DNA from: an uncultured Anaerolineaceae bacterium
Lineage (GTDB): Bacteria > Chloroflexota > Anaerolineae > Anaerolineales > UBA4823
DNA length: 64,000 bases
Reading direction: 5' to 3'
Assembly: GCA_964606085.1 (NCBI GenBank)
Contig: CAZSFD010000005.1
Span: forward strand, 19,812-83,811
Part shown: positions 2,014 to 26,138 of the stretch, one piece after another
Numbering within the stretch: position 1 is the stretch's first letter
Layout: each line of letters starts with the position of its first letter
Translations under genes and position numbers: made by a program
The notes under the pieces: model-generated
Seen by the model: the letters and a program-made list of their open reading frames with translations, nothing else
What the model was told of the DNA's origin: nothing
The model's database searches: none

Positions 2014-3110
2014 TGAATCGGGCGATCTATCGTCTGCAAAGCCGGGTGCGCAGGCCCGTTCGCCGGGCCGGGGCGGCCTATTACCTGCTGGTGACGCTGC
2101 TCAGTTTTGCGGCCTCGGTGACGCTGACCCGCCTGTTTCTGGAGTTGACGGGGTATCCCCAATTGGGTGGGGGCGGCTTGCATATTGCCCACGTGTTGTG
2201 GGGCGGCTTGTTGCTGTTTGTGGGTGCGCTGGCGCCCCTGGTATTTGCCAACCGGTGGGCTTTTCATGTCAGCGCCGTCTTATCGGGGGTGGGGGTGGGG
2301 TTGTTCATTGACGAAGTGGGCAAATTTATCACCTCCACCAATGATTATTTCTTCCCCGCGGCGGCCCCCATCATTTATGCTTTCTTTTTGTTGACCGTGC
2401 TGGTCTATTTGCAAACCCGGCGTCCGATGCCGCAGGATGCGCGGACGGCGCTGTACGGTGTGTTGGATGCGTTGGAAGAAGTGATCGATCACGACCTCGA
2501 TGCCGGTGAACGCGCCGAGTTGGAACGCGGCTTGAAAAGCATCAGCCAGCAAACGGAGCATCCTGAACTGGCTCGCCTGGCGAATGAACTGCTCGAATTT
2601 GTGGCTCACCATGAAATTTTACTGGCCCCAGAGCAGCCCACCCTGCTTGAACGCTGGCAGGCGCTGTTGCGTGAACTGGAGAAGCGTCCGCTCAATCGGG
2701 CGCGCTTGCGCCTGTCCATCGTCGCTGCGCTGGCCGGCCTGGGTGGAATTGCGCTGGCCCGCCTGGCCGTGCTTGGCTCGACGGCATTTACCGATGCCAC
2801 CTTTGCCGAAACCCTGGCGCACATGGCCGCCGCCGGGCTGGTCTCCAGCACAAACGGCATGTATTGGTTCTTCGGGCGGGTGGTGTTAGAAGGTGTGGTG
2901 GGGGTGATGCTGATCGCCGGCGCTGTGTTGCTGCACCTGGGCCGTGAACGCCGCGGCATACGCCTGGCCTATTTTGGGTTGTTGGCGTCGCTCTCGGTGG
3001 TCAACCTGCTTGTGTTCTATTTCGATCAGTTTTCGACCATTGTGCTGGCCTTGCTGCAATTGGGCGCCTTGCTGGCGTTAATTTTCTACCGGCGCAAATA
3101 CCAGGGGTGA
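2013..3110 (+). CDS. Uncharacterised multi-pass membrane protein
   Basis: About 8 hydrophobic segments around a soluble loop; LHIAHVLWGG and GLFIDEVGKFIT segments; start overlaps rbsK stop (TGATG). Confidence 0.75.
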   Translation: MNRAIYRLQSRVRRPVRRAGAAYYLLVTLLSFAASVTLTRLFLELTGYPQLGGGGLHIAHVLWGGLLLFVGALAPLVFANRWAFHVSAVLSGVGVGLFIDEVGKFITSTNDYFFPAAAPIIYAFFLLTVLVYLQTRRPMPQDARTALYGVLDALEEVIDHDLDAGERAELERGLKSISQQTEHPELARLANELLEFVAHHEILLAPEQPTLLERWQALLRELEKRPLNRARLRLSIVAALAGLGGIALARLAVLGSTAFTDATFAETLAHMAAAGLVSSTNGMYWFFGRVVLEGVVGVMLIAGAVLLHLGRERRGIRLAYFGLLASLSVVNLLVFYFDQFSTIVLALLQLGALLALIFYRRKYQG

Positions 3111-3166: not shown

Positions 3167-3195
3167 TTGACAAACGCTTAAAATTTTGATAATTT
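3167..3195 (+). promoter_or_regulatory. Sigma70-type promoter of the glycan locus
   Basis: TTGACA at 3167-3172; -10 candidates GATAAT (3188-3193) or TAATTT (3190-3195) in an AT-rich intergenic region. Confidence 0.6.
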
Positions 3196-3290: not shown

Positions 3291-5672
3291 ATGAACCGAA
3301 AATTTTTAAGCCCCTACGGATATTTTTCGGATGATGGCAAAGAATATGTGATCACCACGCCTCTGACACCCAGGCCGTGGGGCAATATCCTCAGCAATGG
3401 CGATTACGCCCTGATGGTTTCGCAGACTGGGTCGGGGTACAGTTGGCGGGGAAACGCCGGGCAGAACCGCATCACGCGGTCTTTTCAAGATTTGATTAAA
3501 GACAATTGGGGGAAGTATGTTTACATCCGCGATCTGCAACGGAAGACTTTCTGGTCAGCTGCGTACAAGCCGGTGATGCGCCCCTGGCAGGATTTTGCCG
3601 TCGTTCACGGCGTTGGCTACTCCCGTTTTCGGCAGCGCATCGAAGACATTGCCAGTGAGTTGACCGTCTTTGTCGTCGCGGCTGACCCGGTGGAGGTCTT
3701 TCAACTGCGCTTGACCAATCACAGCGACGAGGTGCGCCACCTGGATGTCACCTCGTATGCCGAGTGGCTGTTGGGGTTCGCGCCCGATGAGCATCGCGAA
3801 TTTCATAAGCTGTTCATTGAGACATCGGCAAACGTGGCGCACTGCGCCGTTATGGCCCGCAAGTGTCTGTGGGGTTTCGCCGACGATAAGGGCCGCCACA
3901 ACAATGTGGATTGGCCCTACACCGCGTTCATGGCGGTCAGCGAGCCGTTGAAATCGTACGACTGCGACAAAGAAACGTTCCTCGGCCTGTATCGCAACGA
4001 TGACCGGCCGCGGGCGATGGACGAAACAACCCTGGCCGGGCGCACCGGGCGCTTCACCGATGCCATCGCCGCGCTGCAGGTGGCTGTGACGTTAGCGCCG
4101 GGCGAGTCGAAAATGGTGGTGTTTACGCTAGGGGCCGCCGAAGATGGCAAGGAGGATGCCGCCGAACTGATCCGCCGCTATACCACGGTCGAGGCCAGCG
4201 AACGGGCGTTTGATGGGGTGCGGGCTTTCTGGTCGCGTTTCATTGACGGCGAAAAGGTGGAAACGCCCGATGAAGCGTTCAACTTTATGACCAATACCTG
4301 GCTGAAATATCAGGCCATTTCGTGCCGCTTGTGGGGGAAATCGGCGTTGTACCAGGTTTCGGCGGGCTATGGTTTTCGCGACCAGTTGCAAGACAGCCAG
4401 ATTTTCTTGGTCGGCGAACCGGAATATGCCAAAAAGCAGTTGCTTCTGCACGCCGCGCAGCAATTTATCGAGGGTGATGTGCTGCACTGGTGGTTTTCCA
4501 TGCGCGGCGGCGGGCCGCGCACCAACTGCTCAGACGATTTGCTGTGGCTGCCGTTTATTCTGGATGCCTACCTGAAAGAAACCGGTGACTTTGCCATTTT
4601 GGATGAAGCGATCCCTTACCTGAACGGCCCGGCGGAGAGCCTTTACCGGCATTGCCAACGCGCCATCGAACGTTCGTTCACCCGCTTTTCGCCGCGCGGC
4701 GTGCCGTTGATGGGCGACCACGATTGGAACGATGGCCTGAGCGCGGTGGGGACGCTGCTCAAAGGCGAGAGCTTTTGGGTGGCCGAGTTTCTGTATATGA
4801 TTTTGGGCAATTTCGCCCCGCTCGCCCGGCAGCGCGGCGATGAGATTTTTGCCGGCAAGTGTGAAATTGTTCGCCAGAGCGTGAAAGATGCCCTCAACCG
4901 CCACGGCTGGGATGGCGAGTGGTATTTGCAAGCCACCACCGATGACGGTTTATTGCTCGGCTCGAAGGACAACGCCGAAGGCAAGATATTCCTGATGCCC
5001 AACATTTGGGCGGTGATCAGCGGGGCAGCAGAGGGTGAGCGCGGCCAACAGGCGCTGGCGGCGGTGACGAAATACCTGCTCAAAGACCACGGCACGCTGC
5101 TCAATTACCCTGCCTTTACGCAACCCCGGCCCGATGTCGGCTACGTCACCCGCTATGCGCCGGGCTTGCGCGAAAACGGCGGCGTGTACACCCACGCGGC
5201 CACCTGGTCGGTGTGGGCGTACGCGCTTGCCAACCAGCCCGAACGGGCCTACGAAGCCTACCGCAAAATCTGTCCGCCCAACCGCAGCGCGGATATAGAT
5301 ACCTACAAAGCCGAACCTTATGTCACCCCCGGCAATGTGGATGGCCCACTCTCCGAGTATTATGGCCGCGGCGGGTGGACGTGGTACACCGGCTCGGCAC
5401 AATGGCTGCACCGCGTGGCCACGCATTGGATATTGGGCATTCGCCCGCAAGCAGATGGCTTGCTGGTGTCGCCGTCGATCCCGTCAGAATGGCATGGATT
5501 TACCGTCTCGCGCCGATTCCGCGGGGCGTGGTATCAGATCACGGTCAAAAATCCTGATCATGTCAACAAAGGCGTCAAAAGCGTGATCGTTGATGGGCAA
5601 AGCCTGGCAGGGAATGTGGTTCCCATCTTCGCAGATGGGCAAACACACACGGTTGAAATTCTCTTGGGCTGA
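3291..5672 (+). CDS. GH94 glycoside phosphorylase
   Basis: PRPWGNILSNG N-terminus, GYGFRDQLQD, SDDLLWL, DWNDGL (catalytic Asp), RENGGVYTHAA, WTWYTGSA; no signal peptide; likely start 3291. Confidence 0.92.
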   Translation: MNRKFLSPYGYFSDDGKEYVITTPLTPRPWGNILSNGDYALMVSQTGSGYSWRGNAGQNRITRSFQDLIKDNWGKYVYIRDLQRKTFWSAAYKPVMRPWQDFAVVHGVGYSRFRQRIEDIASELTVFVVAADPVEVFQLRLTNHSDEVRHLDVTSYAEWLLGFAPDEHREFHKLFIETSANVAHCAVMARKCLWGFADDKGRHNNVDWPYTAFMAVSEPLKSYDCDKETFLGLYRNDDRPRAMDETTLAGRTGRFTDAIAALQVAVTLAPGESKMVVFTLGAAEDGKEDAAELIRRYTTVEASERAFDGVRAFWSRFIDGEKVETPDEAFNFMTNTWLKYQAISCRLWGKSALYQVSAGYGFRDQLQDSQIFLVGEPEYAKKQLLLHAAQQFIEGDVLHWWFSMRGGGPRTNCSDDLLWLPFILDAYLKETGDFAILDEAIPYLNGPAESLYRHCQRAIERSFTRFSPRGVPLMGDHDWNDGLSAVGTLLKGESFWVAEFLYMILGNFAPLARQRGDEIFAGKCEIVRQSVKDALNRHGWDGEWYLQATTDDGLLLGSKDNAEGKIFLMPNIWAVISGAAEGERGQQALAAVTKYLLKDHGTLLNYPAFTQPRPDVGYVTRYAPGLRENGGVYTHAATWSVWAYALANQPERAYEAYRKICPPNRSADIDTYKAEPYVTPGNVDGPLSEYYGRGGWTWYTGSAQWLHRVATHWILGIRPQADGLLVSPSIPSEWHGFTVSRRFRGAWYQITVKNPDHVNKGVKSVIVDGQSLAGNVVPIFADGQTHTVEILLG

Positions 5673-5880: not shown

Positions 5881-7299
5881 ATGAAAACCGTTTCGAAATT
5901 GCTCACCCTGTTGATCGCAGCCACCCTGCTTGTCAGTATCGTTGGCTGCACCGCGGCGCAACCGACCGCCACCCTGACGCCCGAACCCACGGCTGTGCCG
6001 GCCACTGCCATACCGCCCACCGATACCCCCGAACCACAGCCTGTCACCATCCGCTATGCCGCCCATAACCTGGGCACCGAAGAGGAAAATAACGCCGAGC
6101 GCCAGTTGATCGCCGCTTACATGGCGCTGCACCCCAACGTGACGATTGAGATCGTGGATATGAGCGCTGAAGGCGGTTGGGAAGCCAACCTGACCGCTTA
6201 CGCTGCCAAGGGCGAGTTCCCAGATGTCTTTTCGGCCTTCGACCTGCCGTTGTATATCAAAAATGATTGGCTGGCAGATGTCGGCCCGGTAGCCAGTGCA
6301 GACCCCGACTGGCAGAAAATTCCCCAGGCGCTGCGCGATTCGGTGGCCTTCAATGGCGTTTCGTATGGCGTGCCGTCGGGACAGTTCATCGTGGGCTATG
6401 TGGTCAACAAAGACCTGTATGAAGCCGCCAACCTGGACGCCCCAGAATATGGCTTTAGCCTGGAAGATTACGAAGCCGCCATGATGGGCCTGAACAACCC
6501 CGCGGATGGCGTGCTTGGCCTGGATGAAGTATGGAATATCCCCGGCTGGCTGCCCAATTCGATTGACCCCAAACTCAAATGGTTCAGCTTCGACGGCGCC
6601 AACATGAATTACAACTCGGCTGCCTTCAAAGAGGCCATTGCCAAGATGGCGCAGTATGGCCCGTATGCCTGGGACGGCCTGAGCGATGAGCAGAAGACGA
6701 ACTTCAAATCGGCTGGTCCGTGGGAACTCTTCCTCAACCAGGAAGTGGGGATGCGCTTCTCGTATGGCTGGGAACTGCCCGGCCTGATCCAGAACGCCAC
6801 CTTCAATTGGGACTTCGTCGGCACCCCGGGCGGCAATCAGGCGCTGGTGTTCGACTTCATCGGCATCGGCAAGACCACCCAGAACCTGCAGGAGGCCTAC
6901 AATTTCGCCAAGTGGATGGCTTTCTCGCCCGATGGGTATGCCAAGCGTGTTGAGATCGCCAAGACGATGAACTCCGTCCCCAATATGCCGGTGGCGGTGG
7001 ATGATGCCACGCTGGCCTTGTACACATCTTTCTACCCGAACCAGCCTGGCCTGGCGGCGGCGATGAAAAACCTGGATAACAGCCTGATCGAGTCGGTGCA
7101 GAAGGCTGTCCCCGGTTTTGTGAATGCCCGTTGGGAAGGCAAAACCGGCATTGTGATCGATGGCGCAGAAGTTGAGCGCATTGATTTCTTCTGGAGCTAT
7201 GGCAACTTCTCGAAGTTCAAGTTTGAAGATTACTCTGCCCAGCTCGAAGAATTCGCCAATAAGATTCTGGCCGAGGCCCGAGCCGGGATTACGAAGTAG
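5881..7299 (+). CDS. Sugar ABC transporter substrate-binding lipoprotein
   Basis: Lipobox IVGC, Pro/Thr linker, SBP family 1-like features; AAGGAG RBS. Confidence 0.9.
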   Translation: MKTVSKLLTLLIAATLLVSIVGCTAAQPTATLTPEPTAVPATAIPPTDTPEPQPVTIRYAAHNLGTEEENNAERQLIAAYMALHPNVTIEIVDMSAEGGWEANLTAYAAKGEFPDVFSAFDLPLYIKNDWLADVGPVASADPDWQKIPQALRDSVAFNGVSYGVPSGQFIVGYVVNKDLYEAANLDAPEYGFSLEDYEAAMMGLNNPADGVLGLDEVWNIPGWLPNSIDPKLKWFSFDGANMNYNSAAFKEAIAKMAQYGPYAWDGLSDEQKTNFKSAGPWELFLNQEVGMRFSYGWELPGLIQNATFNWDFVGTPGGNQALVFDFIGIGKTTQNLQEAYNFAKWMAFSPDGYAKRVEIAKTMNSVPNMPVAVDDATLALYTSFYPNQPGLAAAMKNLDNSLIESVQKAVPGFVNARWEGKTGIVIDGAEVERIDFFWSYGNFSKFKFEDYSAQLEEFANKILAEARAGITK

Positions 7300-7301
7300 T
7301 T

Positions 7302-7349
7302 GAATGCCTGTCAAGGGCGTTGTGGTGCGCCGCAACGCCCTTTTCATTC
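7302..7349 (+). terminator. Stable hairpin after SBP gene (partial terminator or mRNA stabiliser)
   Basis: AAGGGCGTTGTGG-TGCG-CCGCAACGCCCTT stem followed by TT, flanked by GAATG/CATTC. Confidence 0.5.
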
Positions 7350-7377: not shown

Positions 7378-10260
7378 ATGTCGAAGAAGATGCCCCGCTT
7401 TTTCAGGCTGCTGGCTGCGCTATTGATCTTGCTGGTGATCAGCGCCCCCCTGGTGCGCCCTGCGCCGGCGTTGGGCCATCCCTTGCCGGTTCAACGCGCT
7501 GTGCAGGCTGGCGGCGGCATCGAGGTAAGGGCAGATGCGTTTGGCTTACCCGCCGCCGATGACCCGCTGGCGGCGGCGTATGCCAAACCGAGCGTTTTTC
7601 TGCAAGCCGGCGAACCGCTGCATTTCACGGCCGACATTCCGGCAGATGGCCTCTACACCGTGTCTTTCGATATGGCCGCCGGGCAGTCTTTCATCAACGG
7701 GCCAGAGGGTCAGCTTCTCGTGGATGGGTCTTTTCCGATCAGTGAGACGCGCCGGATCATTTTTCCCATCTTTTATCAAAACGCCAGCGACCAATTCCCT
7801 TTGGATCGGTACGGCAACCAGGCGTTGATCCGTCAGGAACGGCTTTTGCGCTGGTCGAAGGTGGCCTTGCGCGATGCCAAATTCAGCCTGCCTTATCCGG
7901 CGCAAATCCCGCTGACGGCGGGGACGCATTCGTTTACTTTCATGCTTACCCAGGAGACCATGCTGCTGGGCAGTGTATACATCGAGCCATTTTCAGCTTA
8001 TCCGGCGTATGAGCGGTACGCGCAGGCTCACCCTGACCGCGCTTCTTCGGGGGTGTTGATCGAGCTTGAAGCCGAGTTTCCGACGTACAAGAACGACACC
8101 GCCATCCGGCCCACTGCTGTGCGCAGCCTGGAGGCATCGCCCTACGACGCCTACACGTTGATGCTGAATACCCTCGGCGGTGAGGGCTGGAAGCGCAGCG
8201 GCAGCGCTGTTTATTACGAGTTTTCGGTGCCGCAAGATGGCCAATATGCGATCAGCCTGCGCTGGCTGCAAAACTTCAAGGAGAACCTGACCATTTTTCG
8301 CCGCATCACGGTGGATGATGCCGTGCTGTTCGACGAACTCAACGCCGTGCCTTTTCCCTATTCCACGCGCTGGGCCACCAGCACCCTGGGCGGCGATACG
8401 CCTTTCAAAATTTACCTGACCCAGGGCAGGCATGTACTGGGGATCGAGGCCAGCAATTCTCCGTACAACCCGGCGCTTACCAAAATCCAGAAGGTGCTGC
8501 TCGACATCAACCGCTTGTCGCTGGAAATCCGCAAGCTGACCGGCAACCAGGCCGACCCGTTCAAGGAATGGGTGCTGTCTGATTACATTCCCGATATTGA
8601 GGCGCGGCTCACGGCGATTGCCGATGACTTGCAAAGCGATATGACTGGCCTGGTGGCGATTAACCAGGCCAACCGCTCGCAGGAAATCTTGATGTACCAG
8701 ATGGCGATTGACAACCTGCGCTACCTGGCCGATGAACCGGACAAAATTCCCGTTCGCATGAACCGCTTCTCCACGGGGGCTGGCTCGGCGGCGGAATTGC
8801 TGGGGAAAATTTTGCCGTCGCTTCAGGAGCAGCCCCTGGCGTTGGATAAAATTTACATCCATTCGCCCGATACGCCTCCGCCGGCGGTGCGTGTGTCGTG
8901 GTGGGCCAGCCTGGCCGATGGCCTGCGGCGTTTCGTCCATTCTTTCCGGCAGGACCCTTACAATTCCATTGGGGCGCAGGAAGGCGAAATTGAAGTGTGG
9001 GTCAACCGGCCACGCCAGTACGTAGATTTGATGCAATTCCTGACCGATCAGACCTTTACCCCCGATACTGGCATCTCGGTCAAGTTTTCGATCATGCCCA
9101 ATGAGTCTAAGCTGGTGCTGGCCAAGGCGGCGGGCATCGAACCAGATGTGGCGCTTGGCATCAGCACCAACATCCCCTACGAACTGGCCGTGCGCAACGC
9201 GTTGAAAGACCTGCGTACGTTCGAGGATTTCGACTCGTTCATCAACATTTACACCCCTGGTTCTTTGCTGAGCTATGTTTTGAACGATTCGGTGTATGCC
9301 ATCCCAGAGACGCAAGATTTTTGGGTCACGTTTTACCGCCAAGACATCTTGCAATCGTTGGGTATTCCGGTGCCGCACACCTACGATGAAGTGATCGAGA
9401 TTTTGCCAGAATTGCAGCGCTATGGGATGAACTACAACACCCCCCTTTCTGGCGGCGCTGGCCTGAAAGGGTATTTGGTGACGGCCCCCTATCTGTTCAA
9501 TTACAATGCCGAACTGTATCGCCCTGATGGCTTCGCTTCTGGCCTGGATAGCGATGCGGCGATCAACGCCCTCAAGTTCATGGCGGAGAGTTTTACCGTT
9601 TATGGTATGCCGCTGACCACTTCCAGCTTTTATGACAGCTTTCGCTACGGCAGCCTGCCTATCGGGGTATCCAACTTTACCGATTATCTCAAGCTGCTCA
9701 CCGCTGCGCCGGAGTTGACCGGGTTGTGGGCGATTGACCTCTACCCGGCCACGGTTCTGCCTGATGGCAGCCAAAACCGCTGGGCCACGGGTTCGGCGCA
9801 GGCATGTATCATGTTCGCAGATACCGAGCAGCCTGAAAAATCCTGGCAGTTTTTGAAATGGTGGATGTCTACGGAGACGCAGGTGGAATTTCAGCAGCAG
9901 CTTGTGTTGAATTATGGCATGGAATACTTGTGGAATTCGGCGAATGTCGCAGCCTTCAGCTATATTCCCATTCCCCAGGAACACAAAGACATTATTCTGG
10001 AGCAATGGAAGTGGCTGCAAGAGCCGGTGAGACTGCCCGGCAGCTACATGCAGGAACGCGAGTTGAGCAACGCCTGGAATAAGATCGTCTTCGATGGGGT
10101 CAACCCACGCGTGGCCCTCGATGACGCCATCCTGGTGATCAACCGCGAAATTGCCCGCAAGATGGAGGAATTTGGCTACCTGGAGAATGGCGTGCCGGTC
10201 AAGGCGTTCAAAGTGCCCACCCTCGAGACGGTGAAGGGCTGGATGGAGCAGGGCCAATGA
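7378..10260 (+). CDS. Giant (about 960 aa) extracellular solute-binding protein: N-terminal beta-rich CBM-like region plus C-terminal SBP domain
   Basis: Sec-type signal peptide; C-terminal half has SBP family 1 motifs ([24 protein letters not shown]); likely start 7378. Confidence 0.85.
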
Positions 10261-11204
10261 CCGCCGCGCGCAGCAGTACGGTTCTGGCAACTCGTGGCGT
10301 TCCCAGCGCAGCCCGCAAGTGGATCGATCAGGAGGGCAATGCCTACGCTTTCCTATCCATGTATGCGGCGATGTTCATTATTTTCATCGTGCTGCCTGTG
10401 GTGGTGGCTATTCTGCTGTCGTTTACCTTTTTTGACACGATCCAGCCGCCCACCTTCAATGGCATGAAGAATTACATCACCCTGCTGACCCAGGATGACA
10501 TCTTCATGCGCTATGTCATCCCCAACACGGTCCAGTTTGCCGTGATTGTGGGGCCGGGTGGCTATATTTTGTCTTTCCTGCTGGCCTGGATGCTGGCCCA
10601 ACTTCCCAAGCTGCCGCGTACCCTCTTCGCTTTGATCCTGTATTCGCCCTCGATGACGGGTGGCGTGGCAATGTCGGTGGTGTGGCTGACCATTTTTAGC
10701 GGCGACCAGAACGGCTATCTCAACAGCTTGCTGCTCAGCTATGGCGCGATCCAGGAGCCGATCCAATGGTTGCAGTCGCCGCAATACCTGATGACGATGA
10801 TGATTGTGGTGACGCTGTGGAGCAGCATGGGGGTGGGCTTTTTGGCGATGCTGGCGGGGATTTTGGAGATCAACCCGGAACTGTATGAGGCCGGGGCGCT
10901 GGATGGCATTCGCAACCGCTTCCAGGAAATCATCCACATCACCATCCCCTCGATGAAGCCGCAGATGTTGTTTGGGGCGGTGATGGCGATTGTGTCCACC
11001 TTTCAGGCGGGAGCCATCGGTGTCACGCTTTCGGGAGCCAACCCCACGCCGCAGTATGCCGGGCAGTTGATCGTCAACCACATCGAAGATTTCGGCTTCA
11101 TCCGCTACGAGATGGGCTATGCCGCGGCGGCTTCGGTGGTGCTGCTGCTGATGGTGTTGTTCTTCGCGCGTGTGGCAAACCGTCTGTTTGGCAGCCCGGA
11201 GTAG
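10257..11204 (+). CDS. Carbohydrate ABC permease (MalF-like)
   Basis: EAA loop [10 protein letters not shown]; TM helices; ATGA overlap with upstream gene. Confidence 0.92.
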
Positions 11205-11212
11205 GAGGCCGT

Positions 11213-12118
11213 GTGAAGATCACCAAATTATTCCATTACGCCAGGGCCTATAACAGCGGCACCAACCCGCGCGGGTTTCATCCCAGCCAGATCAAGTTCT
11301 ATATCATTTTGCTGCCACTGTCGTTGCTGATGATCTTGCCGATTGTCTTTATCTTTTCACATGCTTTCAAACCGCCCGATGAACTGTTCGCTTACCCGCC
11401 GCGCTTTTTGGTGACCAACCCCACCCTGAATAACTTTCGGCAATTGTTCTCCAAAATGACCACTTCCGGCGTGCCGGTCAGCCGCTACCTGTTCAACAGC
11501 GTGGTGATCACGCTGGTTTCAGTGGGGGCTTCGATCCTGGTCTCCTCCACGGCGGCTTACGCCTTGTCCAAGAAACGCTTTGCGCTTAAGCAGACCTTGT
11601 TTGCCATCAATACGGCGGCGTTGATGTTCGTGCCAATTGCCGTGACCATCCCGCGCTTCCTGATTATCGAGCGCCTGGGGCTGATGGATACGTTCCTCGT
11701 CCACATTTTGCCGGCGTTGGCTATGCCGGTGGGTTTGTTTCTAGTCAAGCAGTTCATAGACGGCATCCCCAACGAAGTGATCGAAGCCGCCCAGGTGGAT
11801 GGCGCCTCGGACATCTGGATTTATTGGCGCATCATCTTGCCGATGATCCGCCCGGCCATTGCCACCATCGCCATCCTGATCTTCCAGGCCACCTGGAACA
11901 ACGCCGAAACTTCAACTCTGTACGTCAACAGCGAAAGCCTGAAAACCTTCGCTTTCTACCTGACCACCCTCACCTCCACCACCAGCGGCGCTAACACCGT
12001 CGCCGGGCAGGGCATTGCTGCTGCTGCCTCGCTGATCATGTTCCTGCCGAACCTGCTTATTTTCATTTTGCTGCAAAGCCAGGTGATGAGCACCATGTCG
12101 CATTCGGGACTCAAGTGA
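11213..12118 (+). CDS. Carbohydrate ABC permease (MalG-like)
   Basis: EAA loop [11 protein letters not shown]; GTG start with GGAGG RBS. Confidence 0.92.
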
Positions 12119-14127
12119 TGAAAAAGCTCGCTGCAATTCTTCTGCTGGTGTTGGCGCTTTCGGGACTTTCGGCTTCGGGCGCACAGGCCACTTCGCCATA
12201 TACCACCTGGGCTTTGGGCCCAGGCGGTTTGCTCTTTCTCACTCAAGATGCTTATCGGCCATATGACGAAATCGCCTTGCCCATCGCGGGTGCTGAGGAT
12301 TTCATTGTGACTGCCGATGGCACGATCTACCTGGCCGATACCGGGAAGGGGCGCATCCTCAAGCTGGAGAATTTCGAGATCGCCGCCACACTGGGGGCAG
12401 AGGTGCTGCAAAGCCCGACCGGCATAGATGTCGGCCCGGATGGAACGCTGTACATCGCCGATGCCAAGACAAATACGGTTGTCATTCTGGATCAAGCTGG
12501 CAACCTGATCAGCCAGCTCGGGCGGCCTGGCGAGCCGTTGTTTGGCAAATCGAGGCAATTCTTGCCCCGCAAAATTGCCGTAGACGCCCGCAAGAACCTC
12601 TATATCATCAACGAAGGGTCGGTCAATGGGATTGTGCAGATGAACCCCTACGGCAATTTCATTGGCTATTTTGGCGCCAATGCGGCTTCCACTTCGGTCA
12701 GGTTCATTTTGCAGCGCTTGTTCCTTTCTGAGGAGCAGCTCGACCAGTTCATCAAGAACACGGCCGCCTCGCCGTCGAACCTCGCCATAGATAGCCAGGG
12801 GATGGTGTACACGGTGACTTCTGGCTCTTCCAGGGGCGAGGGCATCCGCCGTTTCATCATTTCGGGCAAGAATATCTTTCCCACCACCTATGGCTCCACC
12901 ACCTTTCGAGACATCCATGTCAGCGAAGATGGCCTGGTGATTGCCGTGGATGAAAGCGGCCAGATTTACGAATACGACACGCACGGCACGCTGCTGTTTG
13001 TGTTTGGCGCGAAAGACCAGGGCGAACAGCGCCTGGGCACACTGCTGGACCCCACGGCCATCGCCCGCTTCGGCGATTTTCTCTATGTTTTAGATCGGGG
13101 CAAGAATGCCATCGTCATTTACCAGTCTACCGAATTTTCGCGCAGGGTGCATCAAGGGGTGAAGCTGTATATGGACGGCTTTTACGTGGAAGCGCGGCCT
13201 TATTTCGAGGAAGTGCTGAACTTCAACGGGTCGTTCATCATGGCCTACCAGGCCATCGCCGATGCCTATTTCAAGCAAAGGGATTTTGTCAATGCCCTGG
13301 CCTATTACCGCTACGCCGAAGACCGCCCCGGGTACTCGCAGGCTTTTTGGGAGCTGCGCAACGCTGTCTTGCAGCAATACCTGTCGCCGGCCCTGTTTGG
13401 GTTGATCGGGTTGTGGGTGATCTATGGTGGGGTGAGCCGCCTGGATCGGCGCTATCGGTGGTTCGAGCCGCTGCGCGCCTGGCTGCGCGGCTTGCAGCGC
13501 TTTCATTTGGTGGATGATTTTGTGTTCATGTTCCGCTTTATCAGGCAGCCAGCCGACAGCTTTTACTACATCAAGAAAAACCAGCGCGGCAGCCTGTGGT
13601 TTGCGCTGCTGGTTTACCTGTGGGTGGTTGCCCTGCGGCTGGTTTCGCTCTACCTGACGGGATTTGTTTTCAACCCTTACCCCTCGCCAGCCAACATCCG
13701 GGTTGAAAATGAACTGATTCCCCCGATCTTGCTCATTTTTCTGTGGAATGCCGCCAATTACCTGGTTTCGACCATCAGCGATGGCGAAGGGCGTGTGCGC
13801 GATGTGATCGTCGGCAGCGCGTACAGCCTGTTTCCGCTGGCCCTGTTTTCGCTGCCGCTGGCGCTGCTTTCCAATGTGCTGTCGCTCAACGAAGTTTTTA
13901 TTTACACGTTCACCCAAAATATCCTCCTGGCATGGACGGGGTTGATGTTGTCCATCATGGTCATGGAAATTCACAACTACTCGTTTCGCGAGACCATCCG
14001 CAACATCATCACCACCCTCTTTACCATGGCCCTGTTCATGCTGACGGGCTATATTTTGTACGTCTTGTTCTCCCAACTGTTCGATTTCGTTTTCGCCATC
14101 TACCAGGAGCTGCGATTACGTGTCTAA
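12118..14127 (+). CDS. NHL-repeat / TPR-like / YIP1-domain membrane protein
   Basis: Signal peptide; NHL repeats ([40 protein letters not shown]); helical TPR-like segment; C-terminal multi-TM YIP1-like region. Confidence 0.8.
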
Positions 14128-16360
14128 GCTGCATATCCTCCTCTTTGTGACCTTGTTTGGACTGCTGGGCGGGGCAGGCGTGGCAAGGGTGGCCGGCGGC
14201 GCACCTGAGGCGCTGCCCCTCGCCCCCGCCGAAGCGGTTGTTCAGCCGCGTGCGCTCGAAATGAAAGGCGCCGCCGCGACCGAGGTGGCGACGGATGTGT
14301 TGGTCGGCGAAAATGCCAAATTCCAACTGTATGCCAATGCCGAAACCCTGGCCTTCAAAGTGGTGGATCGGCGCAGCGGTTATGTGTGGCATTCCAACCT
14401 GGACGAGAAAATGCCCAGCGACCGCCTTAACAAGACCTGGACAGCTTTTGCCACGAGCGGGATCAGCATTGATTTTGTCGATCAAAAGGTCAACGAAAAA
14501 CGCGCCTCCATCACCAGCGCCGAGCACACCATCGAGTTCCAGCAAACGGGCCAGGGCTTCCTGGCGCATCTGACCTTTAGCGAACCTTCCATCTCGTTGA
14601 GCGTCAGCGTCCAACTCAACGAGCGCGGCGTGTCCGTCGAAATCCCCTTTGCTTCCCTGCATGAAGCAGACCCGGCCTACCGGCTGGGCACGCTGCACGT
14701 CTACCCCTTCTTTGCCGCCACCCGCGTAGACGATGTCCCCGGCTATCTGTTCATCCCCGATGGTTCTGGCAGCCTGATCCACTTTGCGGCTGAAACAAAA
14801 GCCAAAAATATGTTTTATGGACGCTATTATGGCGCTGACCTGGGAATGCTGGGTTCCCTGCCGTATGACCCCACGACCCAGCCGCCGCATAAAATTTCCA
14901 TCCCGGTGATCGGGATGGTGCATGGCGAGGGCGAAAATGCCTATCTGGCCATTGTCGAGCAGGGCGCCTCGTATGGCGAATTTCGCGCCCACCCGGCCGG
15001 CATCATCACCAATTTCAATTTTCTTTACAACGCCTTCACCTACAACGCCAGCTATTTCCAGGCCACCAGCCGTTCGGGGGCGGGGGTGACTGTCTTGCAG
15101 CCCAGCACCAACCCGTTTGATGTCAAGATCAACTACCGCTTCCTCACCGGCGGCCAGGCCGATTACGTGGGCATGGCTCGCAGTTACCGCGATTACCTGA
15201 TTGAGCAGGACGAATTGAGCCGCACCGTAACGCCTGGCAGTGACATCGGCATCCGCCTGGAGTTTCTGGCTGGTGATAAGGAGCGTGTGCTGTTTTGGGA
15301 TCGCATGATCCCCATGACTACCATCTCGCAAATGCGGGCCATTCTCGACGATTTGCAGGTCAAAAACCCGCAGGTGGTCTACTATGGCTGGCAGCCCGAT
15401 GGCGCATCCAGTATGCCGCCGAAGACCTTCAAGCTGGATGGCAGCCTGGGGACGCCGGGCGAACTGGCCGCCCTGATCGGCGATGTTCAGGCGACTGGCG
15501 GCCAATTCAATCTGTATGTAGACCCTCAGGCGGCTTTTTGGGATGAGCCAGGCTATTCCACCCGTTCCGACCTGGCTGTGGCTATCATCAACGAAAATAT
15601 CATTGGTTACAACCGCGATAAGGTCAATTTTTTCCGCAACTTCGCCTCGTTGAGCCAGTTCTACACCTCGCTCAACCAGGATGTGTGGCGCGCGGTGGGG
15701 GCGGGCCTGGCCCTGGATGGCATCGGGACGAACCTGTACAGCGATTTCAAGGATGGCAATTTCATCAGCCGTGAACAAGCCATTCAGCAATACCGGGCGC
15801 TGCTGGCCGCCGATGGCAGCGACAACCTGGTGGCGCTTCGCAGCGCTTTTTACCGGCCCAACCACTATCTCTTTCGCTACATGCAGGCTTACTACGACAT
15901 CCCGGTGACCGACAGCGGGTATATCTATACCACTGCTACCGTGCCATTTTTACAGATTGTCTTTGCCGGTATGATCCCGTTCTATGGCCCGGCGCTGAAT
16001 TTTTCTTCCAACCTCCAGGAAGATTTGCTCCGTTATGCCGATTTTGGCGTTTATCCGTCGTTCTTCGTCTCTGAAGGCGCGACCGCCCGCATCCTGAACA
16101 CCCGCTCCAACTGGATTTTTTCCTCGGCATACACCCAATGGGGCGATGAAATCAAGCGCACCTATCAATGGCTCAATGACCGGTTGGGGCCGGTGTATGG
16201 GCAGGAGATCATCGCCCGCCAGCAGCTTGCGCCAGGCGTGTATGCCACCACCTATGCCAACGGGAAGGTCGTCATCGTCAATTACACCGCGCAGCCAGCT
16301 GCCCTGGACGGCGTGACGGTCAATGGCAAAGATGCCGTCCTCAGCGAGGTGCAGCCATGA
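14120..16360 (+). CDS. DUF5696-like secreted protein
   Basis: N-terminal signal or anchor; [12 protein letters not shown] and [15 protein letters not shown] segments I recognise from DUF5696; conserved position between the NHL/YIP1 gene and permeases. Confidence 0.7.
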
Positions 16361-17247
16361 GAAGCCGGCCTTCCTTCGGCATCATTCGCATGAAGCACAG
16401 CTTGCGCGAGGCGCTCTATGGCTACGCCTTCGTGCTGATCTGGATCATCGGCTTTGGCCTGTTTACGGCCATCCCCCTCGTGCAGACCTTTCTGTTCAGC
16501 CTGAACCAGGTCACGGTGAAGGCCACCGGCATTGACCAGGTTTTTGTGCGTTGGGATAACTACACACGGGCGTTGTTTACCGATACCAGCTTTATCGAAC
16601 TGCTGATCGAGTATGTGATCGAAACCCTGGTCTCTGTGCCGATTGTGATCATCTTTTCGATGATCATCGCCTTGCTGTTGAATTTGAATTTCCGGTTGAA
16701 GGGCGTGTTTCGCACGATCTTCTTTTTGCCAGTGGTGATTACCAGCGGGCCGGTCATTCGCGAGCTGACCGCCCAGGGCGCTACCTCCGTTCCTGGCTTG
16801 CAAAACCTGACCGCCGTGGCGAACTTCGTCGCCGAATTGCCGCGCTATTTGCGCAACCCGGTCGAATACCTGCTGACCTCGTTTATTTTGATCCTGTGGT
16901 TTTCTGGCGTGCAAATTCTCATCTATCTCGCCAGTCTGCAGAAGATTGACCGCAGCATTTACGAAGCGGCGGCCATTGATGGCGCATCGGCCTGGGAAGC
17001 GTTCTGGAAGATTACGCTGCCATCGCTCTCAACCACCACCGTGATCATCGCCTTTTACACCATCATCACGCTGTCGCATTTTTCCGAGAACAAAGTCATC
17101 CGCTACATTTACGGGCAAACCTATTCAGTAGATGGCGGGTTTGGTTATGCCAGCGCCATGTCATTCATCTATTTTCTCGTGTTGGTGCTGCTGCTGGTGA
17201 TTGTCTATTTCGCCTTGAATTTCCAATCCCGCAAGACGTTCGATTAA
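16357..17247 (+). CDS. Carbohydrate ABC permease (second MalF-like)
   Basis: EAA loop SIYEAAAIDGAS; ATGA overlap. Confidence 0.92.
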   Translation: MRSRPSFGIIRMKHSLREALYGYAFVLIWIIGFGLFTAIPLVQTFLFSLNQVTVKATGIDQVFVRWDNYTRALFTDTSFIELLIEYVIETLVSVPIVIIFSMIIALLLNLNFRLKGVFRTIFFLPVVITSGPVIRELTAQGATSVPGLQNLTAVANFVAELPRYLRNPVEYLLTSFILILWFSGVQILIYLASLQKIDRSIYEAAAIDGASAWEAFWKITLPSLSTTTVIIAFYTIITLSHFSENKVIRYIYGQTYSVDGGFGYASAMSFIYFLVLVLLLVIVYFALNFQSRKTFD

Positions 17248-17257
17248 CAGGGCGCTT

Positions 17258-18187
17258 ATGCACAGGTTCTCCAAAGATTATCTGCTCGGTTTCTTTTTTG
17301 GCAACCGCACCGGGTACGGGTTGGTTTTCACCACCTTGCTGTATGCCCTGCTGGCGGCGATCGGGTTTGTTTACCTGTACCCGCTGCTGTTCATGTTCGT
17401 CACCAGTTTCAAGAACACCAGCGACCTGCTCAACCCGGCAGTGCAGTGGATTCCGACCGAGTTTTACACGGGCAACTATGTGAAGGCCTACCGGGTGCTG
17501 GATTACCCCCAAACGCTGCTGGCTTCGACGATGATCAGCGTCATCCCGTCCATCATCCAGACGGCCGTGTGTTCGCTGGTGGGCTACGGCCTGGCGCGTT
17601 ACCGTTTTTGGGGCAAAAATGTGATCTTTGCCTGCATCCTGGCGACCTTTATCATCCCCGCTCAGAACACCTTCATCCCGCAGATGTTGACCTTCCGCGA
17701 CCTGGGCTTGTTGGGGAATATCCAGGCATTGCTCATCCCGGCCATCTTCGGCCAGGGGTTCAAGAGCGCCATCTTCATCCTGATCTTTTACCAGACCTTC
17801 CTTTCGCTGCCCAAAGTGCTGGAGGAAGCCGCCCGGCTGGATGGCGCCACCGACCTGCAAATTTTCATCCAAATTGCCATCCCCGCCGCCCTGCCATCTT
17901 ATATCATCTCGGTCATCTTCTCCACGGTCTGGTATTGGAATGAGACCTTCCTGACCAACATCTTCCTCGAAGGCGGCATCCAAACCCTGCCGATGCAGCT
18001 CGCCCGGTTTGTGCAGGCGTACGAAAACCTGTATCCGCCTGGCGTGGTGAACATTTTCGACCGCATCAACGAAGCCGTCAAGTTGAGCGGCACCTTTTTG
18101 AACATCTTGCCGCTGCTCGTGATGTACTTCATTCTGCAAAAATGGTTCGTCGAATCGATTGAAAGGACAGGCATTACCGGTGAATAA
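17258..18187 (+). CDS. Carbohydrate ABC permease (second MalG-like)
   Basis: EAA loop LEEAARLDGA; C-terminal FVESIERTGITG. Confidence 0.92.
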   Translation: MHRFSKDYLLGFFFGNRTGYGLVFTTLLYALLAAIGFVYLYPLLFMFVTSFKNTSDLLNPAVQWIPTEFYTGNYVKAYRVLDYPQTLLASTMISVIPSIIQTAVCSLVGYGLARYRFWGKNVIFACILATFIIPAQNTFIPQMLTFRDLGLLGNIQALLIPAIFGQGFKSAIFILIFYQTFLSLPKVLEEAARLDGATDLQIFIQIAIPAALPSYIISVIFSTVWYWNETFLTNIFLEGGIQTLPMQLARFVQAYENLYPPGVVNIFDRINEAVKLSGTFLNILPLLVMYFILQKWFVESIERTGITGE

Positions 18188-19541
18188 ACCCATCCTCTTG
18201 CTGTTGAGCATTCTCCTGCTGATTTCCGGTTGCACCACGCCAACCCCCACTTCCATGCCCCCCACCTCCACCCCTTCGCACACGCCAACGGCTGTCCAGC
18301 CGCCCCCCACCGAAACGCCCCTCCCCACGCCAACCCCGGCGAATATCGCCGATGTTATCGCATACGAAATGAAAGGTTCGTTCGATTTTTTCTGGGAGCA
18401 GGCCAACACCGACGCGGCCAGCCCTGGCTACGGCCTGGTGCGCGACCGCTATCCGGGGTCAGAAGGCATCGCCAGCATGGCTTCGGTTGGCTTCGCGCTC
18501 ACCGCTTACCCCATTGGCGTGGAAAAGGGCTATATCACCTGGCAGGAAGGTTACGACCGGGCCAACGGCACGCTGGATACCCTGCTGCGCATGGATCGCG
18601 TCGAAGGTTTTTACTACCACTTCGTCGAGATGCAAACCGGCCAGCGCGCCTGGCAGAGCGAGGTCTCTAATATTGACACCTCCATCCTGCTGATGGGCGT
18701 TCTCACGGCGGGGGAATACTTCGGTGGGGAGGTGCAAGCCAAAGCGCAGCAAATTTACGAGGGGGTCAATTGGCCCTGGTTTCTCGATAGCGCAAGGAAT
18801 ATGTTTTACATGGCCTATCGCCCCGAAAAAGGCTTCGAGGGCCACTGGGATTTTTACGCCGAGCAGTTGATGATGTATGTGCTGGCCGCCGGTTCCGTTA
18901 CATACCCGCTCGATGATCTGCCCTATTACACCTTCACCCGCCACACCGCCCACTATGGCGCGGGGCAGCCGTTCATCCATTCGTGGTTTGGTTCCATCTT
19001 CACCTACCAATTCAGCCACGCCTGGATTGATTTCCGCGGCCTGACCGACAAGAAAGATGTCAACTGGTTCGACAATTCGGTCTCGGCGGTGCAGGCGCAC
19101 TACGATTACGCCGTCAAGATGGCGCCCAAGTATAAAACGCTCGGCCCCCTGGCCTGGGGTCTCTCTGCTTGCGACGGGCCGGATGGCTATAACGGGCTGT
19201 ATGGCGCGCCGCCTTCAGGATACGACAACAAGCAGCACAAGGTAGATGACACCATTCCGCCCTATGGCGCCATCGGTTCGATCATCTTCCTGCCTGAGCA
19301 GGCCCAACAGGCCATGTTGAACTATTATGCGCTCGAAAAGCTCAAAGGCCGCTACGGCTTTCAGGATGCCTACAACTTGAGCGAGAACTGGTACGCCCCC
19401 GATGTGATCGGCATTGACAAGGGCATTTCGCTGTTGATGTTGGCGAATTTCGAGAACGAGCAGGTACACCAGATTGTGATGAAAAACGCCCACATCCTCA
19501 ATGGCTTGAGCCGCTTGCAGATCTTGGAGCAGACGCCATGA
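18180..19541 (+). CDS. GH144-like (Glycoamylase/DUF3131-type) putative endo-beta-1,2-glucanase lipoprotein
   Basis: Lipobox ISGC plus Pro/Thr linker; SMASVGFAL, GFYYHF, EVSNIDT, YAEQLMMYVLA, FTYQFSHAW, WGLSACDGP, GIDKG motifs; likely GTG start at 18180. Confidence 0.8.
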   Translation: MNKPILLLLSILLLISGCTTPTPTSMPPTSTPSHTPTAVQPPPTETPLPTPTPANIADVIAYEMKGSFDFFWEQANTDAASPGYGLVRDRYPGSEGIASMASVGFALTAYPIGVEKGYITWQEGYDRANGTLDTLLRMDRVEGFYYHFVEMQTGQRAWQSEVSNIDTSILLMGVLTAGEYFGGEVQAKAQQIYEGVNWPWFLDSARNMFYMAYRPEKGFEGHWDFYAEQLMMYVLAAGSVTYPLDDLPYYTFTRHTAHYGAGQPFIHSWFGSIFTYQFSHAWIDFRGLTDKKDVNWFDNSVSAVQAHYDYAVKMAPKYKTLGPLAWGLSACDGPDGYNGLYGAPPSGYDNKQHKVDDTIPPYGAIGSIIFLPEQAQQAMLNYYALEKLKGRYGFQDAYNLSENWYAPDVIGIDKGISLLMLANFENEQVHQIVMKNAHILNGLSRLQILEQTP

Positions 19542-20515
19542 CCACGATCAAAGACGTTGCCAAACACGCCGGGGTCAGCGTCACCACGGCTTCATACGCC
19601 TTGAACGATACCGGCTCGATCAGCGCCGCCACGCGCCAACGCGTGTTCGAAGCCGCCGAAGCGCTCAATTACCACCCCAACGCCTTCGCCCGCAATCTCA
19701 AAAAGCGCAAATCGGGCGTTATTGGCGTTTTCATCAATCGCTTTGGCGGCTCGTTCTACGAGGACATTCTCGAAGGCATCCACGATGCCGTTCTCACCAC
19801 CGATTACGACCTGATCGTCTGCCCCGAAACCGGGGTCATCCCCCGGCTGCTTACCCAGCGCCAGGTGGATGGGGCCATTGTGTTTGCCTCGCGAATTAAG
19901 AATGACACGCTGGTCAAGGTTGCCTCGAAAAAATTCCCCATCGTCGTCCTCGACCGTTTCCTCGAAACAGACTATTTGTTCCCATTGCTGCTCGACAACC
20001 AGCAGGGCGTGAAGGCGGCTTTTCGGCACCTCTATGAGCAAGGCGCACGGCGGATTTTTTATATTTCTGGCGCAGCCGATTCCTTCGATAACTGGGAGCG
20101 CAAACGGGCCTTTCTCGATGAAGCCGCCAAATATAACCTCGCCACCCAGCAATACGACGGCAACTTCACCGAAAAATCGGGCTACGACATTGGCAGCCAG
20201 ATCATCCAGGGCGGCAGCTTGCCCGAAGCGGTGTTTTGCGCCAACGACCAGATGGCTATCGGCTTCCTGCGCGCCATGCAAGAGCGCCAACTGAATGCGC
20301 CGCGCGATATTGCCGTGGTCGGTTTCGATGACATTCAGGTCGCCAGTTTGATGCACCCTTCCCTGTCCACCGTTGGCGCTTCGCGCTACACCTGGGGCTA
20401 TTCTGCGGCCAACCAATTGATGGACTTTCTCGAAAACGGCAACCCCTTCCCGCAACCCTATCGCATCCAGACGCAACTGATCCCGCGTCAATCCTCCACC
20501 CGAGTCGCCCGATGA
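19538..20515 (+). CDS. LacI-family transcriptional regulator
   Basis: TIKDVAKHAGVSVTTASYALN HTH; YHPNAFARNL hinge; CANDQMAIG, VVGFDDI. Confidence 0.95.
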   Translation: MTTIKDVAKHAGVSVTTASYALNDTGSISAATRQRVFEAAEALNYHPNAFARNLKKRKSGVIGVFINRFGGSFYEDILEGIHDAVLTTDYDLIVCPETGVIPRLLTQRQVDGAIVFASRIKNDTLVKVASKKFPIVVLDRFLETDYLFPLLLDNQQGVKAAFRHLYEQGARRIFYISGAADSFDNWERKRAFLDEAAKYNLATQQYDGNFTEKSGYDIGSQIIQGGSLPEAVFCANDQMAIGFLRAMQERQLNAPRDIAVVGFDDIQVASLMHPSLSTVGASRYTWGYSAANQLMDFLENGNPFPQPYRIQTQLIPRQSSTRVAR

Positions 20516-23837: not shown

Positions 23838-23848
23838 GGGGGGGCAGG

Positions 23849-25159: not shown

Positions 25160-25166
25160 TGGCTGG

Positions 25167-26024: not shown

Positions 26025-26138
26025 TTCGATCTCCATGGAAACCGCCCGGCGATTGATCGCCGGGCCAGTGAGCAGCGCCAGATTAACCTGGCTTTGTAAC
26101 CTGGGTCTGCCCGATAGCCCCGTTTACGGGGGATTGCT

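Follow-up and report, generated by a model that had tools for sequence, protein, structure and literature searches.

A fixed-order cassette of two permease pairs, likely the surface capture and import part of glycan operons, in a probable beta-1,2-glucan locus of an Anaerolineaceae bacterium

Introduction

The uptake of large glycans is far less understood in bacteria without Sus systems than in Bacteroidota, and the locus analysed here raises that question in a concrete form: what is the function of a run of genes that encodes two pairs of importer permeases with two other surface proteins interleaved between them? The locus lies in a stretch of 64,000 nucleotides (hereafter the window) from contig CAZSFD010000005.1 of an uncultured Anaerolineaceae bacterium (assembly GCA_964606085.1). 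An earlier note on this DNA had described a seven-gene importer at 7378-18187, devoid of its own ATPase, and had proposed that its products capture, process and import a glycan at the cell surface. The cassette examined here encodes two solute-binding proteins (SBP1 and the giant SBP2), two permease pairs (PermA1/PermA2 and PermB1/PermB2), a membrane protein with NHL, TPR and Yip1 domains, and an ectoprotein of the DUF5696 family. Our preferred reading, to which we give a probability of roughly 0.7, is that this is an ancient cassette of fixed gene order that forms the surface capture and import part of glycan operons in bacteria devoid of an outer-membrane Sus system, and that in the window it stands inside a beta-1,2-glucan operon.

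Results

Conservation of the cassette across genomes

A genome scan seeded on an alignment of 13 DUF5696 sequences returned 80 loci, and the window proteins were mapped by BLAST onto the open reading frames (ORFs) of these loci. The order SBP2, permA1, permA2, NHL-Yip1, DUF5696, permB1, permB2 appeared almost invariably, its upstream part being colinear in 74/75 and its downstream part in 81/81 testable loci; because the same order recurs elsewhere at this frequency, the arrangement in the window is not attributable to chance. The locus labels include classes of Chloroflexota, many Bacilli (Fictibacillus, Sutcliffiella, Metabacillus, Paenibacillus and Cohnella), Clostridia and Fervidobacterium, and the order is kept across at least three phyla, namely Chloroflexota, Bacillota and Thermotogota. 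The closest relatives of the window locus come from Anaerolineae, Ardenticatenaceae and other Chloroflexota. The synteny survey suggested in the earlier note thus returned co-occurrence of the module genes with their order kept across phyla, and the Bacilli and Clostridia loci bear out its mention of similar gene strings in Firmicutes. Overlapping genes are likewise frequent at the junctions SBP2/permA1 (86%), Yip1/DUF5696 (88%) and DUF5696/permB1 (77%), percentages that are upper estimates because the starts of the longest ORFs were used. PermA1 is the most conserved part of the cassette, with 57-73% identity between phyla, and 59 of 69 testable loci have an SBP1 gene immediately upstream.

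The single broken cassette among the 75 (L041, 1-7546) has a truncated permA2 with patatin, GH5 and GT4 genes upstream, and stems either from a rearrangement or from the joining of scaffolds in a metagenome-assembled genome (MAG). Three taxonomic labels look like MAG binning errors: Erysipelotrichaceae (a protein 48% identical to the DUF5696 protein of the window), Pleurocapsa and Methanocorpusculum, attached to L037, L040 and protein P0456.

Ten further contexts were sampled, around DUF5696 proteins whose identity was just 21-27% to a distant query and 22-27% to one another. Nine of them carry the same cassette, one contig being labelled Acholeplasma, and the neighbouring genes differ widely: GH43/CBM6 with araA/araB/araD (L085), NamZ, GH3, MurQ-like and GH18 (L090), GH38 (L092), GH16 with a GT35 phosphorylase (L093), and GH94, GH4 and ROK (L084). 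These arabinan, peptidoglycan/chitin, mannoside and beta-glucan contexts rule out a cassette specific to beta-1,2-glucan. Since the same genes adjoin enzymes for differing glycans, we regard the cassette as a substrate-independent platform for surface capture and import, of which the copy in the window is most likely specialised for beta-1,2-glucan. The tenth context (L091, 2110-4332) holds a free-standing DUF5696 lipoprotein encoded beside Amidase_3, 2-hydroxyacid dehydrogenase, AP_endonuc_2, heparinase II/III-like and GH20 genes; DUF5696 is hence not confined to the cassette, and this locus suggests that its GH129-like fold, described below, also has a role outside the cassette, in a surface protein or enzyme that stands alone.

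Gene content, permeases and the missing ATPase

Gene identity, order and coordinates were taken from an ORF listing and Pfam scans (Table 1), which confirmed each of the seven genes in the order first claimed. The near-universal overlap of stop and start codons attributed to them stood for four of the six junctions between SBP2 and PermB2 (-4, +8, -4, -8, -4 and +10 nucleotides); the remaining two are gaps of no more than 10 nucleotides, and the overlap of 8 nucleotides is that of the DUF5696 start with the NHL-TPR-Yip1 gene. Two aspects of the first description needed revision. The SBP1 gene, which ends 78 nucleotides upstream of the SBP2 gene, had been overlooked, and the module accordingly comprises eight genes with two SBPs. 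The continuation of the operon into GH144, LacI and GH35 genes, as well as the GH94 gene upstream, had also been missed, and these flanks make the locus a probable beta-1,2-glucan locus. The glycosidase-like fold of DUF5696, described below, had gone unnoticed as well.

The claim of four different permeases holds. All four BPD_transp_1 proteins score above the gathering threshold with an intact EAA loop (EAxxxDG motif) and would form two heterodimers, whereas their NCBIfam matches all lie far below the cut-off; NCBIfam has no model for the SBP1, SBP2, DUF5696, GH144 or GH94 proteins of the window. PermA1 and PermB1 are 29% identical and PermA2 and PermB2 24%, values that mark the two pairs as old paralogues. 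In every variant examined permA is the best match of the first pair and permB that of the second, so the A/B split must predate the spread of the cassette; a recent duplication is ruled out by the low identities together with this persistence of pair identity. An exporter or a biosynthetic system is likewise ruled out by the importer-type transmembrane domains, the SBPs and the catabolic neighbours.

The description of the importer as lacking an ATPase also holds within the 64-kb window, where no MalK/MsmK-type importer ATPase was found. The lone ORF with LSGGQ and Walker A motifs, which carries the only ABC (ATP-binding cassette) nucleotide-binding domain, encodes a fused exporter (48011-49807, ABC_membrane + ABC_tran) unrelated to the importer cassette, and none of the related loci whose gene tables were examined has an importer ATPase adjoining the cassette. 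Orphan ATPases common to several importers, as in MsmK-type systems, are usual in these phyla, and we assume that an orphan MsmK-type ATPase encoded elsewhere in the genome drives the importer.

Two SBPs and two complete transmembrane heterodimers, all with EAA loops, could also be two ordinary, independent CUT1 importers, each with its own SBP and permease pair, co-transcribed with two surface accessory proteins without forming any complex. SBP2 would then probably pair with PermA, since its gene always stands directly ahead of that pair, and SBP1 with PermB, as the small SBP gene found after permB2 in two Clostridia loci (L079 and L081) would agree; the habit of sharing orphan ATPases in these phyla fits as well. 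In an exploratory mirror-tree analysis of 60 loci, which yielded weak residual correlations without a significance control and can serve only as a hint, distances of the SBP2 C-terminal domain co-varied with those of permA1/A2 (residual r = 0.33/0.28), but SBP1 distances did not co-vary with permB (r = -0.16/-0.03). Other features fit two separate importers poorly. The NHL-Yip1 and DUF5696 genes always stand between the pairs, at the frequencies given above and across substrate types, a fixed interleaved order that counts against independence because unlinked transporters would be expected to separate; gene overlaps span the supposed borders permA2/NHL and DUF5696/permB1; and three distant variants (L087, L088 and L089) have no second, small SBP gene within 10 kb. 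We consider independent importers a real possibility but lean against it. The interleaved order kept across phyla and substrates, together with the overlaps that cross the supposed transporter borders, argues instead for a single functional unit, and a physical supercomplex of the cassette parts is plausible.

Solute-binding proteins and the hairpin between their genes

SBP1 is a lipoprotein of 472 residues with a Pro/Thr-rich linker after the lipobox, and matches PF01547 above the gathering score (E = 3.6e-14). It also matches five PDB entries, 22hh-22hl, titled only 'Extracellular solute-binding protein family 1' (E = 1.5e-172). The protein in these entries shares ~90% identity with SBP1 from the cassette of a Chloroflexus MAG (L042). 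We found no paper on them, and the structure is apparently unpublished. The next solved relative of SBP1 is the cycloalternan-binding protein Lmo0181. SBP2 scores above the gathering thresholds of both PF13416 (E = 3.8e-14) and PF01547 (E = 1.9e-12), with the matches confined to residues ~584-865 of the longer, 986-residue ORF that starts at the TTG at 7300. Among solved structures, this C-terminal domain is closest to Lin1841 (E = 6e-10), a protein of Listeria innocua that binds sophoro-oligosaccharides.

Ahead of the C-terminal SBP domain (~520-940), SBP2 is laid out as an N-terminal signal/anchor helix, two beta-sandwiches (~46-360) and a helical bundle (~364-483). Its AlphaFold2 model has an overall pLDDT (predicted local distance difference test) of 57.7, with most N-terminal blocks at ~70-90 apart from the low-confidence loops 141-149 and 241-274; since the SBP domain is modelled poorly, only the N-terminal part was interpreted. 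A Foldseek search with the model matched the N-terminal beta-sandwiches to CBM35/CBM6 modules, and the predicted architecture of SBP2 is thus that of CBM35/CBM6-like modules and a helical stalk placed ahead of the binding domain. The N-terminal region is detectably conserved across all cassette variants.

Between the two SBP genes lies a GC-rich hairpin whose direct RNA folding gave -30.7 kcal/mol (z = -4.15), with 0 of 200 shuffled sequences folding as well, although a scan for consensus terminators had missed it. It probably attenuates read-through and would in this way supply SBP1 in excess over the transporter.

The NHL-TPR-Yip1 protein

From the N- to the C-terminus, the NHL-TPR-Yip1 protein comprises a signal peptide, an extracellular six-bladed NHL propeller, a TPR, a transmembrane helix (423-441), a basic cytoplasmic loop and a Yip1 domain with five transmembrane segments. 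The Yip1 domain matches PF04893 at 36.5 bits against a cut-off of 28.6 (residues 474-643), and hydropathy analysis placed five hydrophobic segments in this region (494-652). A profile built from 32 orthologues matched the sensor propeller of PknD (1rwi, E = 1.7e-42) and consensus TPRs. In three distant variants (L085, L088 and L090) the NHL(-TPR) and Yip1 parts are encoded by separate adjacent genes, which indicates that both can work as separate polypeptides.

Fold and candidate catalytic residues of DUF5696

In the AlphaFold2 model of the DUF5696 protein (pLDDT 76.6, predicted template-modelling score 0.82), an N-terminal anchor helix and a disordered linker lead into a beta-sandwich, which is followed by a (beta/alpha)8 barrel and, at the C-terminus, by a second beta-sandwich. 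Foldseek placed GH129 structures at the top of its PDB matches (5opq at 2.8e-32 and 5wzn at 3.9e-23, with template-modelling scores of ~0.6-0.68), followed by GH101, GH36 and GH31; the GH129 matches span E = 1e-32 to 1e-21 at 13-14% identity. A profile of 46 diverse DUF5696 proteins reached GH129 chains as well (E = 1.4e-7 to 3.5e-6), over part of the barrel only. The modelled fold is therefore GH129/GH101-like, with three domains around a central (beta/alpha)8 barrel in common with the GH129 enzymes NagBb (an alpha-N-acetylgalactosaminidase) and ZgGH129 (a 3,6-anhydro-D-galactosidase), GH101 being next. DUF5696 differs from GH129 in its low identity, in the replacement of a metal-site Asp, in a nucleophile position that is not conserved family-wide and in being tethered to the membrane within a transporter cassette, and it looks like a sister family of GH129 rather than a member. 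The family is large (4,163 clusters at 50% identity, E <= 0.001), and the literature searched held nothing on either DUF5696 or PF18952.

Judged by spacing, the candidate for the GH129 nucleophile is D533, where beta-4 ends, and that for the acid/base is D593. The nucleophile was placed by aligning profiles with ZgGH129 chains, both wild-type and D486N, which yields an argument from spacing only because the relevant alignment segment was not significant. Among 48 close Chloroflexota homologues D533 is invariant and D593 present in 47, and within this beta-1,2-glucan subgroup each of D533, D542, D593, E381 and D468 is retained in 45-48 of the 48 sequences. Across the family, position 533 is D or E in just 21 of 46 diverse members, D542 and D593 vary likewise, and the metal-site Asp of GH129 ('HLDGW' in NagBb) aligns with Tyr or Arg. 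Full conservation across the family is seen at D214, which lies in a PDGSG loop, and at P609, F610 and N721, whereas D240, H268, E/D381, R551 and E/D641 come close to it.

Because D533, D542 and D593 vary in this manner, DUF5696 may not be a classical glycosidase, and it could be a pseudo-enzyme, that is, a binder or scaffold with a glycosidase fold whose conserved motifs contact the Yip1 protein or the second permease pair while neighbouring enzymes carry out all cleavage. The family invariants, together with R551 and H268, exclude the beta-4 and beta-6 positions predicted by spacing, and D214 and H268 are located in the N-terminal sandwich; moreover, the glycans that the cassette serves differ greatly in their chemistry, a range hard to cover for one catalytic family. 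On the other hand, the acidic residues are retained almost throughout the beta-1,2-glucan subgroup, the free-standing lipoprotein of L091 stands among heparinase-like, GH20 and sugar-catabolic genes as an enzyme would, the GH129 and GH101 relatives are active enzymes, and the alignment around the catalytic positions may be unreliable. We judge a pseudo-enzyme less likely than not.

Flanking operon and substrate of the copy in the window

The genes on both sides of the cassette point to beta-1,2-glucan. The GH94 protein, encoded 208 nucleotides upstream of SBP1, is predicted to be cytoplasmic as it has no signal peptide (its start at 3291 follows the public gene call of 793 residues; the longest ORF begins at the TTG at 3186); it matches the GH94 domain of Cgs, and probably acts on sophorose or beta-1,2-oligoglucans. 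Downstream, the GH144, LacI and GH35 genes each overlap their predecessor, and the transcription unit probably runs past PermB2 through all three. The first of them encodes a lipoprotein (lipobox ISGC, Pro/Thr linker) that belongs by its sequence to GH144, with predicted hydrolysis of beta-1,2-glucan: it matches XcSGL (8xul, E = 2.4e-60) and CpSGL (5gzh, E = 1.6e-35), both GH144 beta-1,2-glucanases (PMC12102758). An active SGL that yields Sop3-7 has been described in Chloroflexus aurantiacus (Chy400_4164, PMC12102758). The LacI-family protein is probably the repressor of the locus, and the best solved relative of the GH35 protein is the beta-1,2-glucosyltransferase IaSGT (7vkw, E = 5.2e-60). 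IaSGT is encoded in the SGL cluster of Ignavibacterium album, which comprises two GH144 genes, GH94, the GH35 IaSGT, GH3, an SBP and a TonB-dependent transporter (Kobayashi et al. 2022, PMC8861115); the window has the same set of GH144, Cgs-type GH94 and IaSGT-like GH35 enzymes. With these relatives and that of the SBP2 domain all pointing the same way, beta-1,2-glucan is most likely the substrate of this copy.

Another beta-glycan, such as a cellodextrin or a beta-galactoside, would be the alternative. GH94 includes cellobiose phosphorylases, which the window protein also matched at E ~1e-140, GH35 is mostly a beta-galactosidase family, and Lmo0181, the nearest solved relative of SBP1 after 22hh, binds cycloalternan. 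Nevertheless, the best GH35 match is IaSGT, a GH144 lipoprotein is encoded and every GH144 member named in the papers cited has beta-1,2-glucan or oligosaccharides derived from it as substrate, the same combination of enzymes defines the published SGL cluster, and most related Chloroflexota loci hold a second GH144-like gene. A different beta-glycan thus appears quite improbable.

The GH94 and LacI genes hold the same positions in most Chloroflexota loci. In most of the related ones (L001, L004, L006 and others) the second GH144-like gene, divergent at 34-41% identity, lies between LacI and GH35; it is absent from L017, L024, L030 and the window, where LacI overlaps GH35 directly. Two further neighbourhoods may be related to sugar use. 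An ORF of 366 residues with no Pfam match (2010-3110) lies between a PfkB sugar kinase gene (1084-2013), which it overlaps by 4 nucleotides, and the GH94 gene, and may belong to the sugar locus. Directly past the operon, on the opposite strand (22644-26036), genes for an MFS transporter, an enzyme of the mannitol dehydrogenase family and a PIG-L-type deacetylase may constitute a unit of their own for a sugar or sugar acid.

Table 1. Cassette genes, flanking operon genes and the intergenic hairpin, with positions in the window
Feature	Position	Strand	Basis
GH94 glycoside phosphorylase	3291-5672	+	Pfam GH94 supersandwich and catalytic domains, E = 1.9e-116
SBP1, solute-binding lipoprotein of ordinary size	5881-7299	+	Pfam SBP_bac_1; lipobox IVGC
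GC-rich hairpin (13 bp) followed by a U-tract, terminator-like	7313-7349	+	between the SBP1 and SBP2 genes
SBP2, giant solute-binding protein, 960 residues	7378-10260	+	Pfam SBP_bac_8/1
PermA1, MalF/UgpA-type importer membrane subunit	10257-11204	+	Pfam BPD_transp_1; EAA loop at residue 211
PermA2, MalG/UgpE-type importer membrane subunit	11213-12118	+	Pfam BPD_transp_1; EAA loop at residue 191
NHL-TPR-Yip1 membrane protein	12115-14127	+	Pfam NHL, TPR_2, Yip1
DUF5696 ectoprotein	14120-16360	+	Pfam DUF5696, E = 4.6e-165
PermB1, MalF-type importer membrane subunit	16357-17247	+	Pfam BPD_transp_1; EAA loop at residue 203
PermB2, MalG-type importer membrane subunit	17258-18187	+	Pfam BPD_transp_1; EAA loop at residue 190
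GH144-family endo-beta-1,2-glucanase homologue	18159-19541	+	Pfam Glycoamylase PF10091, E = 3.7e-58
LacI-family regulator	19538-20515	+	Pfam LacI and Peripla_BP_3
GH35 protein, cytoplasmic	20512-22602	+	Pfam Glyco_hydro_35

Discussion

The data presented here allow us to propose how the cassette might work in the window. By homology, the GH144 lipoprotein would act outside the cell and cut beta-1,2-glucan, whether linear or cyclic, to sophoro-oligosaccharides, while the CBM35-like modules of SBP2, and perhaps the NHL propeller too, could hold the polymer at the membrane and DUF5696 might trim or otherwise handle it. The two SBP domains would then hand the products to two separate type-I ABC translocons, both powered by a shared MsmK-type ATPase encoded elsewhere, and the Yip1 domain may help to assemble the transporter parts, as the precedent of YknW discussed below suggests. 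In the cytoplasm, also by homology, the GH94 protein would phosphorolyse the oligosaccharides and the GH35 protein transglycosylate them under the regulation of LacI. The parts thus fit the capture, processing and import of a surface glycan that had been suggested for this locus, in the CBM35/CBM6-like modules of SBP2 as well as in the GH129/GH101-like fold of DUF5696, although that suggestion had left the second SBP out of account.

Several points weigh against this reading. Two SBPs with two permease pairs are the very parts list that the earlier note had named as its own case of refutation, in which each pair works independently, and with two such importers no special mechanism would be needed to account for the genes present. 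The substrate has been called from the homology of neighbouring genes alone, and the one experimental record for any cassette part is the deposited structure of the SBP1 orthologue (22hh-22hl). The poor model across the SBP domain of SBP2, the family-wide variability at positions 533, 542 and 593 of DUF5696, the Tyr or Arg found in place of the GH129 metal-site Asp and the resulting doubt about a classical glycosidase belong to the same side. A stronger version of our preferred reading would unite all parts in one stable membrane machine, a 'utilisome' of bacteria that lack an outer membrane, where the Yip1-anchored NHL/TPR protein tethers DUF5696 and SBP2 to the two translocons so that the polymer is caught and cut and its products pass directly into both, DUF5696 being a new glycoside hydrolase family with a specificity that varies by operon. 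We put this version forward tentatively and think it unlikely in its full form.

Comparison with known systems helps to delimit what is new. The CUT1 importer Lin1841-1843 of Listeria innocua, a sophoro-oligosaccharide transporter encoded beside the SOGP Lin1839 and an example of the Gram-positive oligosaccharide importers that share an orphan ATPase, also combines an SBP_bac_1/8 protein with MalF/MalG-type permeases bearing EAA loops and has no ATPase gene at its locus (PMC8861115, PMC12369401). Like it, the cassette adjoins GH94 and other beta-1,2-glucan enzymes, and its SBP2 domain finds in Lin1841 its best solved relative; unlike it, the cassette has two permease heterodimers and two SBPs, one of them 960 residues long with CBM35-like modules and a helical stalk, and always carries the NHL-TPR-Yip1 and DUF5696 genes between the pairs. 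The SGL cluster of I. album, which shares its enzymes with the window, has been described with a TonB-dependent transporter and an ABC transporter whose SBP is a Lin1841 homologue, the extra parts going unmentioned, whereas uptake in the window would proceed through the double-permease cassette.

The likeness drawn by the earlier note to the Sus-like utilisome of Bacteroidota survives as a functional analogy only. The logic may match, in that the translocon genes have next to them those for a module that would bind at the surface, for a surface protein with a glycosidase fold and for a binding 'lid'; but Pfam detected no SusC (TonB-dependent transporter) or SusD domain among the products of the locus, none of the components is homologous, both an outer membrane and a TonB-dependent barrel are absent, and the energy would come from ATP. 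For the Yip1 part, YknW, a Yip1-family protein of Bacillus, modulates assembly of the YknXYZ ABC complex (PMC4887032, citing Yamada et al. 2012). A bacterial Yip1-domain membrane protein is encoded together with an ABC transporter in both cases, with the difference that the YknXYZ complex exports, is of the MacB type and includes a membrane fusion protein, while the Yip1 domain of the cassette is fused or adjacent to an NHL propeller and TPRs and goes with type-I importers.

Each part of the cassette comes from a known superfamily (CUT1 importer, CBM35/6-like modules, NHL, TPR, Yip1 and a GH129-like fold). Their combination in fixed order, that is, two heterodimers, a CBM-bearing SBP, a Yip1-anchored propeller and a DUF protein with a glycosidase fold, is not described in the literature searched, where we found no paper on the cassette, in agreement with the earlier note, which knew of no mechanistic characterisation. 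A 2026 review of bacterial glycoside transporters makes no mention of Yip1, DUF proteins or MsmK, and a search for literature linking YIP1 family proteins to ABC transporters and glycoside hydrolases returned nothing relevant. There is a fair chance that an enzyme family and a type of transporter assembly, both new, are hidden in the cassette.

Nearly every sampled DUF5696 member sits in the cassette, which marks a widespread and unstudied system carried, with rigid gene order, by soil, gut, wastewater and thermophilic bacteria. The beta-1,2-glucan copy offers a good entry point, since the GH144, GH94 and GH35 families of its neighbours already include characterised or solved proteins and an SBP1 orthologue has a solved structure. 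Working out the cassette could add a new glycoside hydrolase family and provide the first role for bacterial NHL-Yip1 proteins, and the cassette itself could serve as a marker that predicts glycan use in the genomes of Bacillota and Chloroflexota.

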